From: a virus
Taxonomy: Duplodnaviria; Heunggongvirae; Uroviricota; Caudoviricetes
IMG/VR virus record: IMGVR_UViG_2684623189_000004
DNA length: 47,382 nucleotides
Reading direction: 5' to 3' (one strand)
A model generated the notes under the pieces. That model worked only from the letters and a program-made list of their open reading frames with translations. It was not told where the DNA came from and ran no database searches. Both the position numbers and the translations under genes were made by a program. Shown in pieces: positions 29,545 through 43,397 of this stretch. Position 1 is the first letter of the stretch; every line of letters starts with the position of its first letter.

Positions 29545-29790
29545 TGCCCACAAGAAAACCCCTCCGGAGAGGGGCTAAAGCCGCGTATCTGTATCATCAT
29601 GCACATGGTGCCGGGTGCCTCCCGGTGAGTTCAGCCCGGTGCCACTAAACCCGCGTCATTCTCGTTTTGATAATCAGAGATTATACCGTCACCAGTCGCC
29701 CCTCCGCTCAGGGGGATTCACCATGCGAAATTTTTTTAACAAATGCCCAGTCTGACAGGCAACTGTCAACTTACTGAATTGTGAGCAACA
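29545..29790. repeat. diverged tandem repeat unit A (ends in GC hairpin plus T-tract on minus strand)
   Basis: shares CCCCTCCGGAGAGGGG, CATGGTGCCGGGTGCCTCCCGGTGA, GCCCCTCCGC.CAGGGGGATTCACCATG, CTGAATTGTGAG blocks with unit B. Confidence 0.6.
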
Positions 29791-30035
29791 TAGCATTTAA
29801 CGGGGAACCTGTTTTCTGCAGTAAAAAGGCCCACCGGAGCGGATGGGCCTGGAAGGATAGCGGTCATGTGATGCCGGTTTCCCGGTAACTCAGCACCGGT
29901 ATCTGAGTCAACGTTTTCTCTACTGGGTCATTTCCGATACGCCCTGCCTGCTGACAGGCTTTCATCACATCTGAAAATATAGCACCCTGACTGATACTGT
30001 AGTACCTAAGGTTCCAGAAACTGTGATGTATCCGG

Positions 30036-30265
30036 CACAGAAAAGCCCCTCCGGAGAGGGGCTGGAGAGTGGCGCTATGTGCCATTGCATGGTGCCGGGT
30101 GCCTCCCGGTGAATTCAGTACCAGCACCTGAATCCGCGATTATCCCATATACCTACTCGCTGATTGCCCCTCCGCACAGGGGGATTCACCATGCCAGTTT
30201 CTTTTAACAAACTCCCCGCAAACCAGACAACAGTCAACCGCCTGAATTGTGAGACATTTAAAAAA
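30036..30265. repeat. diverged tandem repeat unit B
   Basis: same blocks as unit A; immediately downstream (minus strand) of tRNA-Arg(UCU). Confidence 0.6.
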
Positions 30266-30298: not shown

Positions 30299-30375
30299 TG
30301 GCGCGTTGTACTGGATTCGAACCAGTGACCGATTGCTTAGAAGGCAATTGCTCTGTCCGGCTGAGCTAACAACGC
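30299..30375 (-). tRNA. argO: tRNA-Arg (anticodon UCU)
   Basis: 77 nt; 7-bp acceptor GCGTTGT/ACAACGC, anticodon loop CCTTCTAAG, T-loop GGTTCGAATCC, 3' CCA. Confidence 0.85.
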
Positions 30376-30388
30376 AGGATACAGATAA

Positions 30389-30466
30389 TGGACCGCCTTC
30401 GGGGACCCGAACTCCGCGCAACCAGCTTCGAAGGCTGGCGCTCTTTCCTGATGAGCTAATGGCGGT
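30389..30466 (-). tRNA. argN: tRNA-Arg (anticodon UCG), atypical stems
   Basis: anticodon arm CCAGC-CTTCGAA-GCTGG, D-arm GCTC...GAGC, encoded CCA; mismatches in acceptor and T stems; exact ends uncertain. Confidence 0.55.
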
Positions 30467-30472
30467 ATGTGA

Positions 30473-30548
30473 TGGTGGCCCTTGCTGGATTTGAACCAGC
30501 GACCTGGCGATTATGAGTCGCTCGCTCTCACCACTGAGCTAAAGGGCC
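30473..30548 (-). tRNA. ileZ: tRNA-Ile2 (anticodon CAU, lysidine type)
   Basis: 76 nt GGCCCTTTAGCTCAGTGG...CTCATAATCG...GGTTCAAATCC...GGGCCACCA; close to E. coli ileX as recalled. Confidence 0.85.
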
Positions 30549-39102: not shown

Positions 39103-40179
39103 TTACCCCCTGAAGCCCGGCGGAATTTCGTTATCCGGTTCAGAAATATGATTCACACAACGCTGGTTGTTCGTGCCGCTTACCGGGAGCAACCAGGGGT
39201 TCTCAAAATTCCGGTCCGGTCCAAAAAACGTCGTCGCTCGCTGAACAAATTCCGTTCCCGTTTTCCCGGTAGCCGCCAAGTATCTTGCGTAACGCCTCAC
39301 GCCATCCAGCATGGCCTCTGGTGGCACCCCCTCGCGTAATCTGGCCTTCCAGGCACTGAAAGCGGATTTCTTCGGGTTTGCCCCAGCACGCAACGGGTAC
39401 TCCCGCCAGACCTGTTCGAACACATCCGGATAATCCACTCGTCCCACAGACTGCCCGGTGTTTTCCGGGACTACCCGATCGGCTTCCCGCTGAATGGCGG
39501 AATCGGCTTCGGGCTGCTGCAGTTGGTGTGATTGCTCCGGCCTTGCGGTCATCACCTGCTGCACAGCGCCCGAATCGGCTTTCAGCGCATACGCTGAATC
39601 GGCTTCCGGTGTCGTGCCTGCTGGCTGACCAAGATTGACGGTCTGAACATCCCCTGCCTGGTTCGTGGCGTTTTTTACGCCATGGACCATAGTGTTTTGA
39701 TCTTCTTGATCTGTATCTTTATCTGTATCTTTATCTGTCGTGACTCGTCGTGACATGTGCGTGACATTTCGTGACGCGCCGTGACAATCGCCATTTTGTT
39801 CCCGCTTTCTTTCCCTCTCTCGCTGCGCCCTCTTGCGCTCTGCAGGAGATTTTGCGGTTTGCGAAATATTGCCGTTGTCCTCTTTAAGCACCTGGCGTTT
39901 TTCCCATCCAGTGATTAAATCACCATCAAGTACCCGCCCCTGCATCGTCTGCAAAATTGAATCAATTACCTCTTCTGTCACGTCGAGCGCACTTGCCAAA
40001 TCTTCTGTCGTGACATCAATGTGACCTCGCGTGACATTTCGTGACGCGCTCACCAGGAGGTGGATATACACTGCCATCACTGTTGCAATTGGCTGCCCTG
40101 ACACCCTGGCAATTGTTCGCCACTTAGGGTCATTTGGCATGTCATGCCATAATCTGAGCCAGGCGTTAGCCATACTCAC
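39103..40179 (-). CDS. replication initiator-like protein (O analogue) containing iteron arrays
   Basis: 358 aa; follows cro/CII-like genes; internal low-complexity linker (DKDTDKDTD); two iteron arrays in the coding sequence. Confidence 0.5.
   Translation of the reverse strand: MSMANAWLRLWHDMPNDPKWRTIARVSGQPIATVMAVYIHLLVSASRNVTRGHIDVTTEDLASALDVTEEVIDSILQTMQGRVLDGDLITGWEKRQVLKEDNGNISQTAKSPAERKRAQRERERKREQNGDCHGASRNVTHMSRRVTTDKDTDKDTDQEDQNTMVHGVKNATNQAGDVQTVNLGQPAGTTPEADSAYALKADSGAVQQVMTARPEQSHQLQQPEADSAIQREADRVVPENTGQSVGRVDYPDVFEQVWREYPLRAGANPKKSAFSAWKARLREGVPPEAMLDGVRRYARYLAATGKTGTEFVQRATTFFGPDRNFENPWLLPVSGTNNQRCVNHISEPDNEIPPGFRG
39739..39785. repeat. iteron array 1: five CGTGAC repeats at 10-11 bp spacing
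   Basis: CGTGAC at 39739, 39749, 39760, 39770, 39780; adjacent TCTGTATCTTTA tandem at about 39700..39735. Confidence 0.7.
40009..40045. repeat. iteron array 2: four (C/T)GTGAC repeats at 10-11 bp spacing
   Basis: repeats at 40009, 40020, 40030, 40040; 20-mer CGTGACATTTCGTGACGCGC also present in array 1. Confidence 0.7.
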
Positions 40180-40244
40180 CTCTTCTGATACCGAATCTTT
40201 TTACTCACGAGTTGCCGGAAGCGATTCGATATGGCTATTGTCAG

Positions 40245-40670
40245 TCAATGTACTGCCACAGCATTTCCTGCCGGGCCACCACGGTTCATCTGATTGAAAC
40301 CGGCGATTGCCACTGCGACAAAATCATCAGCGTCTCTCACCAGTCGCTCCCGCGTCTCCACCAGCTCCCGAAAATAAGCTGAACTGTGGCTGCGCATTCT
40401 GGCCACCAGCAAAGGTGGCATTGCCTTTTCGATCGCTGGTAACAACGCCTGAATTTTTTCAACTGCATCAGGGGTGTCTTTCTCTATCCAGCGGAAAATT
40501 TTCTGGGTATTGCGAGCCAGGGCTTCCGGATGGCTGTCGTCGTACAGTTCAGGAAACGTCATACCCAACTCAAAATAAGCCTGGGTTATTCCAGCTGCCG
40601 GAACTTTTTCGCCATCAGGACGCGCCCAGGCATTCATCGCCATGCGGATGTGTTCATGCTTGATTTTCAT
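40245..40670 (-). CDS. CII-like/YdaT-like regulator
   Basis: 141 aa from MKIKHEHIRMAMNAW with GGGGGG RBS; directly follows cro-like gene. Confidence 0.45.
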   Translation of the reverse strand: MKIKHEHIRMAMNAWARPDGEKVPAAGITQAYFELGMTFPELYDDSHPEALARNTQKIFRWIEKDTPDAVEKIQALLPAIEKAMPPLLVARMRSHSSAYFRELVETRERLVRDADDFVAVAIAGFNQMNRGGPAGNAVAVH

Positions 40671-40896
40671 GAATCCCCCCTTGGTTAGAAGGCGGATTAT
40701 GATCAGAACCGGGAATGACAACCGTCGGTATGTGTAACTCATATTTGAGCGCCCCGGCAGTGACTGCCTGAATTAGCAACGCCCATTTCCACGGAACCTC
40801 TTCCCCCCACATGCTGACTGTGGTTTTTGACGTTCCTAGAGCTGCGGCTGTTTTAACAACTCCGCCAAAATAGCCTAATACTTCTGATTTTTTCAT
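40654..40896 (-). CDS. Cro-like/YdaS-like HTH regulator
   Basis: 80 aa from MKKSEVLGYFGG; GTSKTTVSMW HTH-like; divergent from cI. Confidence 0.55.
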   Translation of the reverse strand: MKKSEVLGYFGGVVKTAAALGTSKTTVSMWGEEVPWKWALLIQAVTAGALKYELHIPTVVIPGSDHNPPSNQGGIHENQA

Positions 40897-40987
40897 GAGT
40901 CGCTCCATAAAACTGAACGCCAAAAGTTTAATAATCAAAACCAAAGAAAGTCAAGAAACAAAACCATCTGTGTTTTAAAATCAAAAC

Positions 40988-41626
40988 ATGAACAAGCAAA
41001 CAATATCTGAACGCATAACCCAACGTATGCATGCGCTAAACCTGAAAGGCAAAGACCTTGTCAATGCCACTGGCGCATCAAAAGGCTCCGTAAGTCAATG
41101 GATGAACGGTGGAGGAGCGCCGTCCTCGCGTTACATAAGTTCACTGGCAAAAATATTGAAAGTAAACGAAAATTGGCTTCTTAATGGAGGAGAGTTAAAT
41201 ACAGGTGATTCGCTTGATCTATCTTTACCGCCGATAAAAACGGTTCCGCTACTATCACTTCAGCAGGCAGCAAGCTGGAGTGATTATATGAAAAATTCCT
41301 CAATAACCTCTTGTGTGCAGCTTGTCGGAGAAATCCCGGCCAATACCTTTGCAGTTGTTCTAGAGAGTGACAGTATGTCAACATCTGGTGGGGGAGTTTC
41401 CATCCCAAATGGTTCAACAGTTTTTGTTGATCCCGATCGAACCGTACAACCAGGAAATATTGTCCTTGCCTTACCCAAAGGGACCACAACACCTGTCATT
41501 CGTAAACTGGAGATAGAAGGGCCGGATATTCTTTTAGTCCCCACGAATCCTCGCTACCCTTCAATTATGCTGGATGATCTATCTTGCATATTGGGCGTAT
41601 GCTTTAAAATTCAACAAAATATTTAA
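40988..41626 (+). CDS. cI: CI repressor (HTH plus LexA/S24-like peptidase domain)
   Basis: 212 aa; N-terminal HTH (GASKGSVSQWMNG); C-terminal autocleavage-type domain. Confidence 0.85.
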   Translation: MNKQTISERITQRMHALNLKGKDLVNATGASKGSVSQWMNGGGAPSSRYISSLAKILKVNENWLLNGGELNTGDSLDLSLPPIKTVPLLSLQQAASWSDYMKNSSITSCVQLVGEIPANTFAVVLESDSMSTSGGGVSIPNGSTVFVDPDRTVQPGNIVLALPKGTTTPVIRKLEIEGPDILLVPTNPRYPSIMLDDLSCILGVCFKIQQNI

Positions 41627-41692
41627 CCGACCTCATCTATTTGATTAACTGTATGCCATCGTGGTGATGGCTTAACAGCTGCCTGCTTAAAA

Positions 41693-41741
41693 TGTTTTGA
41701 TAAAAAAACATTGACCTGAAAAGTTCATTTTTCTAAACTTA
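41693..41741 (+). promoter_or_regulatory. candidate pL promoter with overlapping palindromic operator
   Basis: palindrome AATGTTTTgataaaAAAACATT; TTGACC-16 nt-TAAACT. Confidence 0.35.
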
Positions 41742-41837
41742 ATTCATTCCCTCTCCCCACCCCACAGAATGCAGGGCAATACTTCTAGTTACCAGGCAGT
41801 GGTCAGGGGTTAAGTAGCCAGCCCGAGGCGTAAGAAC

Positions 41838-42074
41838 ATGACGGCAGGGTTCAACTTTAATAACTATGCAGCAGGTTTTTGTTCCGCTACCCCGGCGTTA
41901 AGGGGAAATGAGGTCAGCATGGATACTATCGATCTTGGCAACAGCGAATCTCTGGTATGTGGCGTGTTCCCCAACCAGGACGGTACGTTCACCGCGATGA
42001 CGTATACCAAAAGCAAAACGTTTAAAACCGAAAATGGTGCCCGTCGCTGGCTGGAAAGAAACTCAGGTGAGTGA
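41838..42074 (+). CDS. hypothetical early-left protein
   Basis: 78 aa ORF downstream of candidate pL; a 42-aa acidic ORF follows at 42076..42204. Confidence 0.35.
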   Translation: MTAGFNFNNYAAGFCSATPALRGNEVSMDTIDLGNSESLVCGVFPNQDGTFTAMTYTKSKTFKTENGARRWLERNSGE

Positions 42075-42233
42075 TATGGATTTCGACACAATCATGGAAA
42101 AGGCTTACGAAGAATACTTCGAAGGCCTTGCCGAAGGCGAAGAAGCTCTCAGCTTCAGTGAGTTTAAACAGGCGCTTTCCAGCTCGGCAAAATCTAACGG
42201 CTGATAAGCGAAGCAGCACCGCGAGGAATCAGT

Positions 42234-42455
42234 ATGCAGAAACGAGAACCCGTCATCATCGCGCCAGACTATACCAATGATGAACTTTATGAGTGGATGC
42301 GCCAGAAAATTAATGCAGCGCAGGATTTGAAATGGGCCAATGAAGCCAGGGCTAAGCAGGCTGAAAATCTGTCCGCTCTGGAGCAGGATATCACCAATCT
42401 GGAAAAAGCAGCGGCATTAAGCATTGCCAGAATGATTACATACCCGCGTGAATAG
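42234..42455 (+). CDS. hypothetical early-left protein
   Basis: 73 aa; AGGA RBS 7 nt upstream of ATG. Confidence 0.4.
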   Translation: MQKREPVIIAPDYTNDELYEWMRQKINAAQDLKWANEARAKQAENLSALEQDITNLEKAAALSIARMITYPRE

Positions 42456-43020
42456 CTAACCAACGAAGCTAAGGTTGGTAATTAAGGAGTTCTCCACGGG
42501 TGAGGTGGAGTGCGTGCGCCGGACACGGGTGAGCATCCGGCACTGACAGTTTACTGAAAGGATATTTCCCTGAAAAGTCAGACCATAACGCGAAAGCGCA
42601 CGGCGAGGTAGCTGGTTCATAGATAGCCTGTCGTTAAATTTTCGTCGACCGTGCGCTTCCGGTTGTGGCAATCCGCGAAATGGCGCGGCGGTAAGTATGG
42701 CGGGGTTATTCCTTCCACCGTTGAGGACACCGGGTTGTCAGGTTGACCATACGCTTAAGTGACAACCCCGCTGCAACGCCCTCTGTTATCAATTTTCTGG
42801 TGACGTTTGGCGGTATCAGTTTTACTCCGTGACTGCTCTGCCGCCCTTTTTAAAGTGAATTTTGTGATGCGGTGAATGCGGCTAAGCGCACGCGGAACAG
42901 TTAAAACCAAAAACAGTGTTATGGGTGGATTCTCTGTATCCGGCGTTAATTGTTAACTGGTTAACGTCACCTGGAAGCACCAGGCACCGCATCACAAAAT
43001 TCATTGTTGAGGACGCGATA
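42456..43020 (+). other. 565-bp non-coding, GC-rich, hairpin-dense region in the early-left operon (candidate structured RNA or regulatory element)
   Basis: no credible ORF on either strand; 10-bp stem AAGCGCACGG/CCGTGCGCTT, 9-bp stem GGGTTGTCA/TGACAACCC, 18-bp perfect inverted repeat at 42857..42874 and 42984..43001. Confidence 0.4.
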
Positions 43021-43209
43021 ATGGAAACGTTATTACCAAACGTTAATACGTCTGAAGGTTGTTTTGAAATTGGTGTCACTATCAGTAACCCTGTATTTAC
43101 TGAAGATGCCATTAACAAGAGAAAACACGAACGGGAGCTATTAAATAAAATATGCATTCTTTCAATGTTGGCCCGTTTACGTCCGATACAAAAAGGATGC
43201 TGGCAATGA
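43021..43209 (+). CDS. hypothetical small protein
   Basis: 62 aa; GAGGA RBS; stop overlaps next start (ATGA). Confidence 0.4.
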   Translation: METLLPNVNTSEGCFEIGVTISNPVFTEDAINKRKHERELLNKICILSMLARLRPIQKGCWQ

Positions 43210-43397
43210 ATACAGCATTTGCACTTGTTCTGACAGTTTTTCTTGTTTCCGGAGAGCCAGTTGATACTGCAGTCAGTGTTCACAGGACAATGCAGGAGTG
43301 TGTGACTGCAGCAACCGAACAGAAAATTCCCGGTAACTGTTACCCGGTCGATAAAGTTATTCACCAGGATAATAACGAAATCCCGGCAGGTCTTTAA
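43206..43397 (+). CDS. small protein with hydrophobic N-terminus (possible membrane or secreted)
   Basis: 63 aa MNTAFALVLTVFLVSGEP...; AAGGA RBS 8 nt upstream. Confidence 0.4.
   Translation: MNTAFALVLTVFLVSGEPVDTAVSVHRTMQECVTAATEQKIPGNCYPVDKVIHQDNNEIPAGL

Follow-up and report, generated by a model that had tools for sequence, protein, structure and literature searches.

Two repeat arrays within an initiator gene

The DNA analysed here, 47,382 nucleotides in length and referred to as the window, is IMG/VR virus record IMGVR_UViG_2684623189_000004 (Caudoviricetes) and originates from a complete lambdoid prophage of E. coli, with an integrase at the window end. Within it, a replication initiator gene on the minus strand (39103..40173) encodes a protein of 356 amino acids (aa) and contains two arrays of short direct repeats, or iterons, which are the subject of this analysis. 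The open reading frame (ORF) was listed as 39103-40179 (358 aa), and its start was set at the ATG at 40173 on the basis of the MAN(S/A/Q)WLRLW sequence of homologues and the annotation of phage Tritos. An earlier note on this DNA had called the gene initiator-like, a description that is borne out by an end-to-end match to phrog_3729, “replication initiation protein” (E = 5.5e-258), and by the NCBI name for the protein, “phage replisome organizer”. A Pfam search of the 358-aa ORF at E <= 0.01 returned no family, matching neither lambda O (Phage_rep_O) nor the replisome-organizer N-terminal family, Phage_rep_org_N, and PHROGs labelled as replisome organizers or DnaD-like loaders gave weak matches to residues 3-167 (E = 7e-10 to 2e-4).

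The protein is laid out as an N-terminal helix-turn-helix-like domain (aa 1 to ~128), a disordered linker (128-243) and an exchangeable C-terminal domain. Its AlphaFold2 model is poor overall, with a mean predicted local distance difference test score (pLDDT) of 59.8 and values below 50 for residues 128-243. Helices are placed at residues 2-11, 16-25, 29-45, 56-63, 67-77 and 110-126, the first five of which are confident, as is the helical domain at the C-terminus. A Foldseek search of this model against the PDB found nothing below E = 2, and the putative assignment of residues 56-77 as a helix-turn-helix is based on the helix pattern only.

The array in the linker (39739..39785, plus strand) consists of five exact copies of CGTGAC, read as GTCACG on the coding strand, which start at 39739, 39749, 39760, 39770 and 39780 (spacing 10/11/10/10). 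It encodes CHGASRNVTHMSRRVTT, part of the disordered linker (codons 130-145), and is recognized by Tandem Repeats Finder as a 10-nucleotide (nt) period at 39737-39786. The array in the N-domain (40009..40045, plus strand) has exact copies starting at 40009, 40030 and 40040 and a one-mismatch copy, TGTGAC, at 40020 (spacing 11/10/10), and encodes the loop ASRNVTRGHIDVT (codons 43-55), directly N-terminal to the helix-turn-helix helices. The five and four copies of CGTGAC at 10-11 bp spacing that had been described earlier are, accordingly, accurate for the first array, and for the second only if the degenerate TGTGAC is accepted, whereas the separation of about 270 bp is precisely that, 270 bp from start to start. 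A single inverted copy of the hexamer (39977..39982, minus strand) encodes V65-T66, with 27 nt between its end and the first base of the N-domain array. Each iteron unit spans 10-11 bp, and its core, GTCAC(G), is asymmetric and lacks an internal inverted repeat; within each array the hexamer occurs in all three reading frames (gene nt 129, 139, 149 and 160; 389, 399, 409, 420 and 430). In the AlphaFold2 model the N-domain array codes for the end of helix 3 and a low-confidence loop, 46-55, and the linker array codes, together with the A+T-rich tract described below, for part of a 115-residue disordered segment. These DNA signals are thus found in the coding segments that would best tolerate them, since the loop and the disordered linker are structurally the least constrained.

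A chance origin of the arrays is excluded by their statistics. Shuffled sequence gave an expectation of 22.3 CGTGAC matches per window on both strands, so that the Poisson probability of at least eight same-strand matches in 307 nt is 1.7e-14, or 5e-12 when corrected for all positions, and the longest chain at 9-12 nt spacing in 500 shuffles had two members, compared to the five observed. There is no other CGTGAC cluster anywhere in the 47 kb window.

The linker array is abutted by a strand-asymmetric, A+T-rich tract (39695..39738; 73% A+T, pyrimidine-rich on the plus strand), with the coding-strand sequence AGATAAAGATACAGATAAAGATA, encoding DKDTDKDTDQEDQ. The tandem run previously noted beside the arrays is found here by Tandem Repeats Finder as 2.9 copies of the 12-nt repeat TCTTTATCTGTA (39704-39738). 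The 40-nt window that starts at 39695 is the least stable duplex of 38600-41000, with a dG of -43.4 relative to a gene mean of -57.4 (sd 3.8, 40-nt windows), placing the tract at the 99.66th percentile of the whole window. Two GATC (Dam) sites, at 39699-39702 and 39708-39711, lie 9 bp apart within the tract; some relatives have GATC in their tract (pAEv1818, L087, L094, L102, L106 and L123) and others do not, and a link to SeqA or methylation control is possible.

Conservation and selection of the repeats among relatives

Relatives of the gene were collected by blastn against phage records and by searching one genome of each species with an alignment of the N-domain, the latter yielding 52 loci (numbered here with the prefix L) of 45-99% protein identity from Enterobacterales, Pseudomonas, Bordetella, Chromobacterium, Acidovorax, Gilvimarinus and others. 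The blastn search found near-identical genes in the isolated E. coli phages Tritos, Evi and vB_EcoS-689R5, and Pseudomonas and Aeromonas phages with ~70% nucleotide identity over the N-terminal half of the gene only. The earlier note would have counted the absence of the repeats from functional relatives against its proposal; they are present in isolated, plaque-forming relatives that infect E. coli, Pseudomonas and Aeromonas. The layout of four iterons at gene nt ~129-160, three to six at ~380-450 and then an A+T-rich purine tract is kept in Pseudomonas phage P7869, in Aeromonas phage pAEv1818 and in ~45 diverged gamma- and beta-proteobacterial prophages. P7869 has a T/C-rich run, TCTTCTGTATCTTTATCT, followed by four CGTGAC copies at 10-nt spacing and by four more ~260 nt away, and pAEv1818 has three copies in one array and four in the other. 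The C-terminal domains of these two proteins differ, and the next gene in P7869 encodes a primase/helicase, that in pAEv1818 a DnaC-like loader.

Essentially all relatives of at least 58% identity carry GTCAC on the coding strand four times at nt ~129-160 and three to five times at ~380-450, making this pentamer (GTGAC on the plus strand) the core that is retained. The inverted copy is found at the same gene position (nt 193) in most loci of this GTCACG class. When 5-mers that recur at a spacing of 9-12 nt were searched for without a preset motif, more distant relatives proved to have two arrays as well but to use other words, GTAACG(C) in both arrays of L103, L108, L115, L116 and L123, and CGAACGC in L111, L113, L114, L117, L119-L121, L124, L128, L131 and L135, with a spacing of 10-11 nt throughout. 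The linker and N-domain arrays of any one genome share their word, which is almost never found elsewhere in the gene and shows no enrichment in the flanks. The distance between the starts of the two arrays takes values of 250, 258, 260, 262, 278 and 281 nt in relatives, among which no common helical phase is obvious.

The A+T-rich tract is kept across all iteron classes, with the consensus (C/A)(C/T)AGATAAAGATA(A/C)AGATAAAGA. The 30-nt window of lowest stability in the gene begins 0-45 nt past the last linker iteron in 40 of 45 relatives. The tract averages 72% purine on the coding strand and 66% A+T, against 45% A+T for the genes that contain it, and persists even where the gene has a G+C content of 69%.

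Shigella phage 75/02 Stx (L136) has an initiator that is homologous to that of the window from residue 158 onwards, right past the A+T tract, and unrelated in its N-terminal half. The gene thus falls into two exchangeable modules, one made up of the N-domain with both arrays and the A+T tract, the other of the C-terminal domain, a construction also seen in lambdoid O proteins. Consistent with this, the unit encoding aa 1-157 is inherited together and is combined with different C-terminal domains and different downstream genes for a helicase or loader. No iteron array is present in the 75/02 Stx gene, and a purine-rich (GAACAG)n tract (L136 2586-2625) takes the place of the A+T tract of the window. 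A further relative, L137 (CP137943.1), is a 50.9 kb circular lambdoid phage genome carrying the initiator/iteron module, which was deposited as P. aeruginosa “plasmid unnamed1”, a non-mobilizable plasmid without a typed replicon, and has a near-identical second record, CP124671.1. This extrachromosomal DNA, which may be a phage-plasmid or else a phage form that is replicating, is the only and an indirect hint of autonomous replication.

Codon usage separates selection on the DNA from selection on the peptide. Among 22 sequences of the GTCACG class, whose first 330 nt have a mean pairwise identity of 69% (range 63-94%), six codons of the N-domain array are identical in every sequence (V47 GTC, T48 ACG, G50 GGT, H51 CAC, V54 GTC and T55 ACG, 22/22 each) and two more are near fixed (S44 TCA in 21 of 22, A43 GCG in 20 of 22). 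Conserved residues off the hexamers vary, V32 using four codons (8/7/6/1) and A60 likewise four, as does R49 (9/6/6/1), which lies between two hexamers. The iteron codons have a mean entropy of 0.10 bits and a major-codon fraction of 0.98, compared to 1.45 bits and 0.54 for the 54 conserved codons elsewhere (Mann-Whitney p = 5.9e-6). The V65 GTG codon of the inverted copy (20/20) is the only codon outside of the arrays with zero synonymous variation.

The same outcome was obtained with the 11 sequences of the CGAACGC class (mean identity 66%), in which S44 TCG, N45 AAC, T47 ACC, E48 GAA, R49 CGC, R51 CGA and T52 ACG are invariant, counted among those sequences that have the consensus residue (9-11 of 11). 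Here, the spacer codon G50 uses three codons, and the entropies are 0.21 versus 1.32 bits (p = 2.2e-5). The reverse case is provided by L103 and L107, between which the motif changes from GTC to GTA and the encoded Val-Thr remains unchanged. The arrays are under selection at the level of the DNA and not of the protein, and there is very little doubt that the repeats have a function as DNA.

The arrays as a candidate replication origin

The arrays are probably the replication origin of this lambdoid E. coli prophage, embedded in its own initiator gene. The earlier note's proposal of a candidate origin is strengthened by the selection on the DNA, by the identity of the motif in both arrays within each class, and by the low duplex stability beside the linker array in 40 of 45 loci. 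There are at least three direct repeats in the same orientation at about one helical turn, as is general for iteron origins, the repeats are selected as DNA, and each of the three motif classes has matching arrays. The best reading is that the linker array and the A+T tract are the origin core and that the array in the region coding for the DNA-binding domain is an accessory site.

Replication would start here by the following route. The N-terminal helix-turn-helix-like domain of the initiator would bind head to tail to the short asymmetric iterons, one per helical turn, so that occupation of the five linker iterons (39739-39785) would build a one-sided nucleoprotein array and open the adjoining A+T tract (39695-39738), the proposed DNA-unwinding element. 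The exchangeable C-terminal domain with its DnaT-like tail may then bring in the host DnaB-DnaC helicase. Capture of DnaB-DnaC through the tail is proposed because no helicase or loader gene follows the initiator gene and because the tail, SEPDNEIPPGFRG (39103-39174, minus strand; the last 24 codons), is nearly identical to that of host DnaT, SEPDNxIPPGFRG, a resemblance suggesting mimicry of DnaT. Similarity to DnaT does not extend over the full length of the protein and is confined to these last 24 residues: the DnaT structures PDB 6aep/2ru8/9zbt match initiator residues 333-356 only, and NCBIfam NF002770 (DnaT) matches residues 335-358 of the ORF at 19.2 bits, relative to a cut-off of 201. 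A recent paper on the preprimosome describes the way in which DnaT itself recruits DnaB/DnaC as still unknown (PMC13377028), and this step of the model is, therefore, speculative. The N-domain array (40009-40045), located 270 bp upstream and overprinted on a surface loop, may serve as an accessory initiator-binding site that could raise the local concentration of initiator, form a DNA loop with the core, or obstruct transcription from pR and so mediate autoregulation.

Several observations weigh against this origin model. The putative recognition helix (aa 67-77, TEEVIDSILQT) is acidic, and the conserved core of the repeats is only 5-7 bp, far shorter than that of classical iterons. The arrays are inside or next to the N-domain coding sequence, which makes their co-inheritance with the N-domain partly automatic, and such co-inheritance alone does not identify the binder. 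Four relatives (L110, L112, L118 and L122) lack an N-domain array and have a linker array only, sometimes of two copies, with the A+T tract, demonstrating that the N-domain array is not universally required. This absence also indicates that the linker array and A+T tract are the constant core and that the N-domain array is a frequent but dispensable addition. In L118, a prophage in a Noviherbaspirillum metagenome-assembled genome (MAG), three GTCAC linker iterons (gene nt 362-390) are paired with an N-domain nearest to the CGAACGC class; this locus is either a natural recombinant or evidence that the N-domain loop does not set specificity. Finally, no paper describing these repeats was found in a search of the literature on the motif and on iterons in replisome-organizer genes.

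In the alignment across iteron classes the N-domain is strongly conserved except for that loop (aa 44-56), its one hypervariable segment. The change of the loop with the iteron class could mean that it reads the iterons itself, in which case one DNA sequence would be both a binding site and the code for its reader. A mutation there, once copied into the linker array by gene conversion, could then yield in a single step new origin/initiator specificities that are mutually incompatible. The idea is improbable, as the loop of L118 does not match its iterons and the GTC to GTA change between L103 and L107 is silent.

Other functions of the arrays have to be considered next to an origin. They might bind the initiator or another phage regulator for transcriptional control only, as a site of autoregulation or a roadblock to a pR-like transcript, with the true origin elsewhere. 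Initiators commonly autoregulate, the arrays are inside a transcribed gene downstream of the early promoter region, and the N-domain array has no adjacent A+T-rich tract, all of which is compatible with such a role. Transcriptional control would not, however, require the least stable DNA to be positioned beside the linker array, the motif is not clustered near promoters or elsewhere in the flanks, and the window contains no alternative iteron cluster that could be the true origin. A purely regulatory function is for these reasons unlikely, and regulation is in any event compatible with an origin role rather than exclusive of it. Similarly, two arrays, each with about five direct repeats of 10-11 bp, recall in their form the centromeres of the parC type, such as parC of plasmid R1 with its two five-repeat arrays of helically phased short direct repeats, which would suggest a partition site or, alternatively, a packaging-recognition site. 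Partition genes are, however, absent from the neighbourhood, and the arrays belong to a lambdoid prophage that integrates and has an integrase. They also accompany the initiator module in all relatives, irrespective of the remainder of the genome, so that a centromere or packaging signal appears very improbable.

Synonymous constraint alone cannot separate selection on DNA from selection on RNA, and the motif could in principle function on the transcript, either as a repeated site recognized by an RNA-binding protein or a small RNA (sRNA) or as a structure affecting translation or decay. The strict 10-11 nt periodicity, however, is that of the DNA helix, the element always adjoins a duplex tract of low stability, one conserved copy is inverted, and no Rfam family matches at the arrays, leaving only a slight chance for an RNA-level function. 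The remaining possibility is that the repeats have no function as DNA and are the by-product of a repeated peptide (ASRNVT...VT) generated by an internal coding duplication. The arrays do have in common a 20-nt stretch, CATTTCGTGACGCGC(C/T), and the peptide ASRNVT, in the same frame and 270 nt (90 codons) apart. Nevertheless, the hexamer occupies all three frames within each array, and its synonymous sites are invariant in the 22 sequences, in which other conserved codons use two to six codons. Recent common ancestry as the source of this invariance is argued against by the 63-94% identity range. The second class gives the same codon result with a different peptide and motif, and the change of motif between L103 and L107 keeps the peptide. 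The frozen synonymous sites in both classes remove the repeated-peptide explanation, to which next to no credence can be given.

Flanking elements, prophage context and known systems

The DNA around the proposed origin core has further features. On the other flank of the linker array is a tract (39795..39835) that is polypyrimidine on the plus strand and polypurine on the coding strand, encodes the basic helix AERKRAQRERERKRE, and holds the strongest pyrimidine-skewed 40-mer of the 47 kb window (87.5%); it could be purely a consequence of the coding sequence. Directly beyond the A+T tract lies an imperfect palindrome (39659..39689) of 13 pairs with a 5-nt loop, the predicted folding energy of which is in the top 2.7% of the local background in the window, and which is terminator-like on the antisense (plus) strand. 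It is retained in Shigella phage 75/02 Stx (L136 about 2553-2583) with a T-A to A-T flip in the stem, exactly where the homology of the two initiators begins. Hairpins at this position were not significantly enriched in 40 relatives (perfect-stem test; folding-energy KS p = 0.08). Membership of the palindrome in the origin is uncertain: its placement is reminiscent of lambda, and it may be a third origin element, an antisense terminator or a recombination joint. The DnaA box TTATNCACA does not occur within 39160-43350 at up to one mismatch, indicating that DnaA boxes are not part of the candidate origin. A search for an internal promoter produced one weak 9/12 sigma-70-like match over the linker array (39761-39788, plus strand), with a regional count within the shuffle expectation, and this candidate was rejected.

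The order of genes in the early-right region is canonically lambdoid, cI / cro / cII / initiator, with a LexA/S24-type repressor gene (40988-41626, plus strand), a P22-Cro-like gene (about 40654-40944, minus strand) and a cII/YdaT-like gene (40245-40742, minus strand) preceding the initiator gene, and a DUF977 or “Ren-like” gene (38640-39062, minus strand) after it. The prophage has no helicase or loader gene after the initiator and no P-like partner gene. Prophages in the chromosomes of E. coli UTI89, NU14, UM146 and others match the region 38600-41700 with 100% identity. The module is very common: of 5,426 complete E. coli genomes, 727 have it at a query coverage of at least 80%, UTI89 and NU14 among them, and in these two RefSeq labels the initiator a “hypothetical protein”. 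A scan of IMG/VR recovered only identical E. coli copies.

Elsewhere in the window, Rfam identifies on the minus strand two copies of the sRNA STnc100 (29546-29755 and 30033-30223) and three tRNA genes (30302-30548) upstream of the late region, a sok antitoxin RNA of a hok/sok-type module (35069-35243) and an IS009 RNA element (1378-1576) near the tail-fibre end of the prophage, as well as a DicF antisense sRNA on the plus strand (42795-42846) in the early-left region. Downstream of the replication module are two minus-strand genes that may be defence or moron cargo, one (37486-38598) with a sub-threshold match to a HEPN/RES N-terminal domain (E = 2e-4, phrog_17908) and the other (36904-37470) matching phrog_16994.

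If the proposed origin were confirmed, it would supply the replication origin and the specificity determinants for a large group of lambdoid prophages. It would also define naturally orthogonal initiator/iteron pairs (GTCACG, GTAACG and CGAACGC) that could explain the replication compatibility of co-resident prophages. A cis-acting DNA signal overprinted on a protein domain in three frames would, furthermore, matter for the use of synonymous sites as neutral markers and for the recoding of phage genomes.

Of the known systems, the origins of lambda-type and Stx phages are the closest in arrangement. They have iterons and an A+T tract in the middle of gene O, with an iteron number that varies and of which two, together with the A+T tract, suffice for unwinding, and the iterons of lambda itself are dyad-symmetric, 19-bp inverted repeats (PMC7466680). 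As in lambda ori (and its Stx variants with six iterons), the candidate origin is mid-gene, the iterons are followed directly by the A+T tract, and both are in the segment that joins an origin-specific N-terminal domain to an exchangeable, helicase-recruiting C-terminal domain. The initiator gene is likewise downstream of cro/cII, and the number of iterons varies between relatives. The lambda-like arrangement that had been suggested for this locus, therefore, holds for its mid-gene iterons and flanking A+T tract but not for homology to O or for 19-bp dyad-symmetric iterons. Unlike lambda, the initiator is not an O homologue (no Pfam match, and a best PHROG, phrog_3729, that is not an O family), and the units are asymmetric and 10-11 bp long with a core of 5-7 bp. 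The second array, ~230-270 bp off within the region coding for the DNA-binding domain, has no lambda counterpart, and in place of a P-like partner gene there is the DnaT-like C-terminal tail.

The Bacillus phage SPP1 encodes the replisome organizer G38P, and its oriL, inside gene 38, has binding repeats beside an A+T-rich region; G38P binds two separate regions that are many kilobases apart, only one of which is in the gene. The initiator described here resembles G38P in its NCBI name, in its weak PHROG matches at the N-terminus and in having repeats in its own gene, and differs in giving no match to the Pfam replisome-organizer N-terminal family, in its Gram-negative hosts, in the unrelated repeats and in having both arrays in the gene. 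In the satellite phage P4, ori and crr are clusters of the octamer TGTTCACC, about 4.5 kb apart, that are bound by the alpha protein. Very short iterons, a roughly helical spacing and two clusters for one initiator are features in common with P4, whereas P4 alpha is a primase-helicase and its clusters are outside of the sequence coding for the DNA-binding domain of the initiator. Iteron plasmids (P1 incC/incA, F, R6K, RK2) have iterons of 17-22 bp and winged-helix initiators of the RepA/Pi type. They similarly have two arrays of the same iteron at the initiator gene, one beside the unwinding element and the other accessory or regulatory, but their control arrays set copy number, which an integrating phage does not need. 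The architecture and logic of this locus are thus lambda-like, overturn no principle and do not amount to a new kind of system; the family is, nevertheless, widespread and uncharacterised, and its bipartite, overprinted design with matched motif classes is unusually clear.

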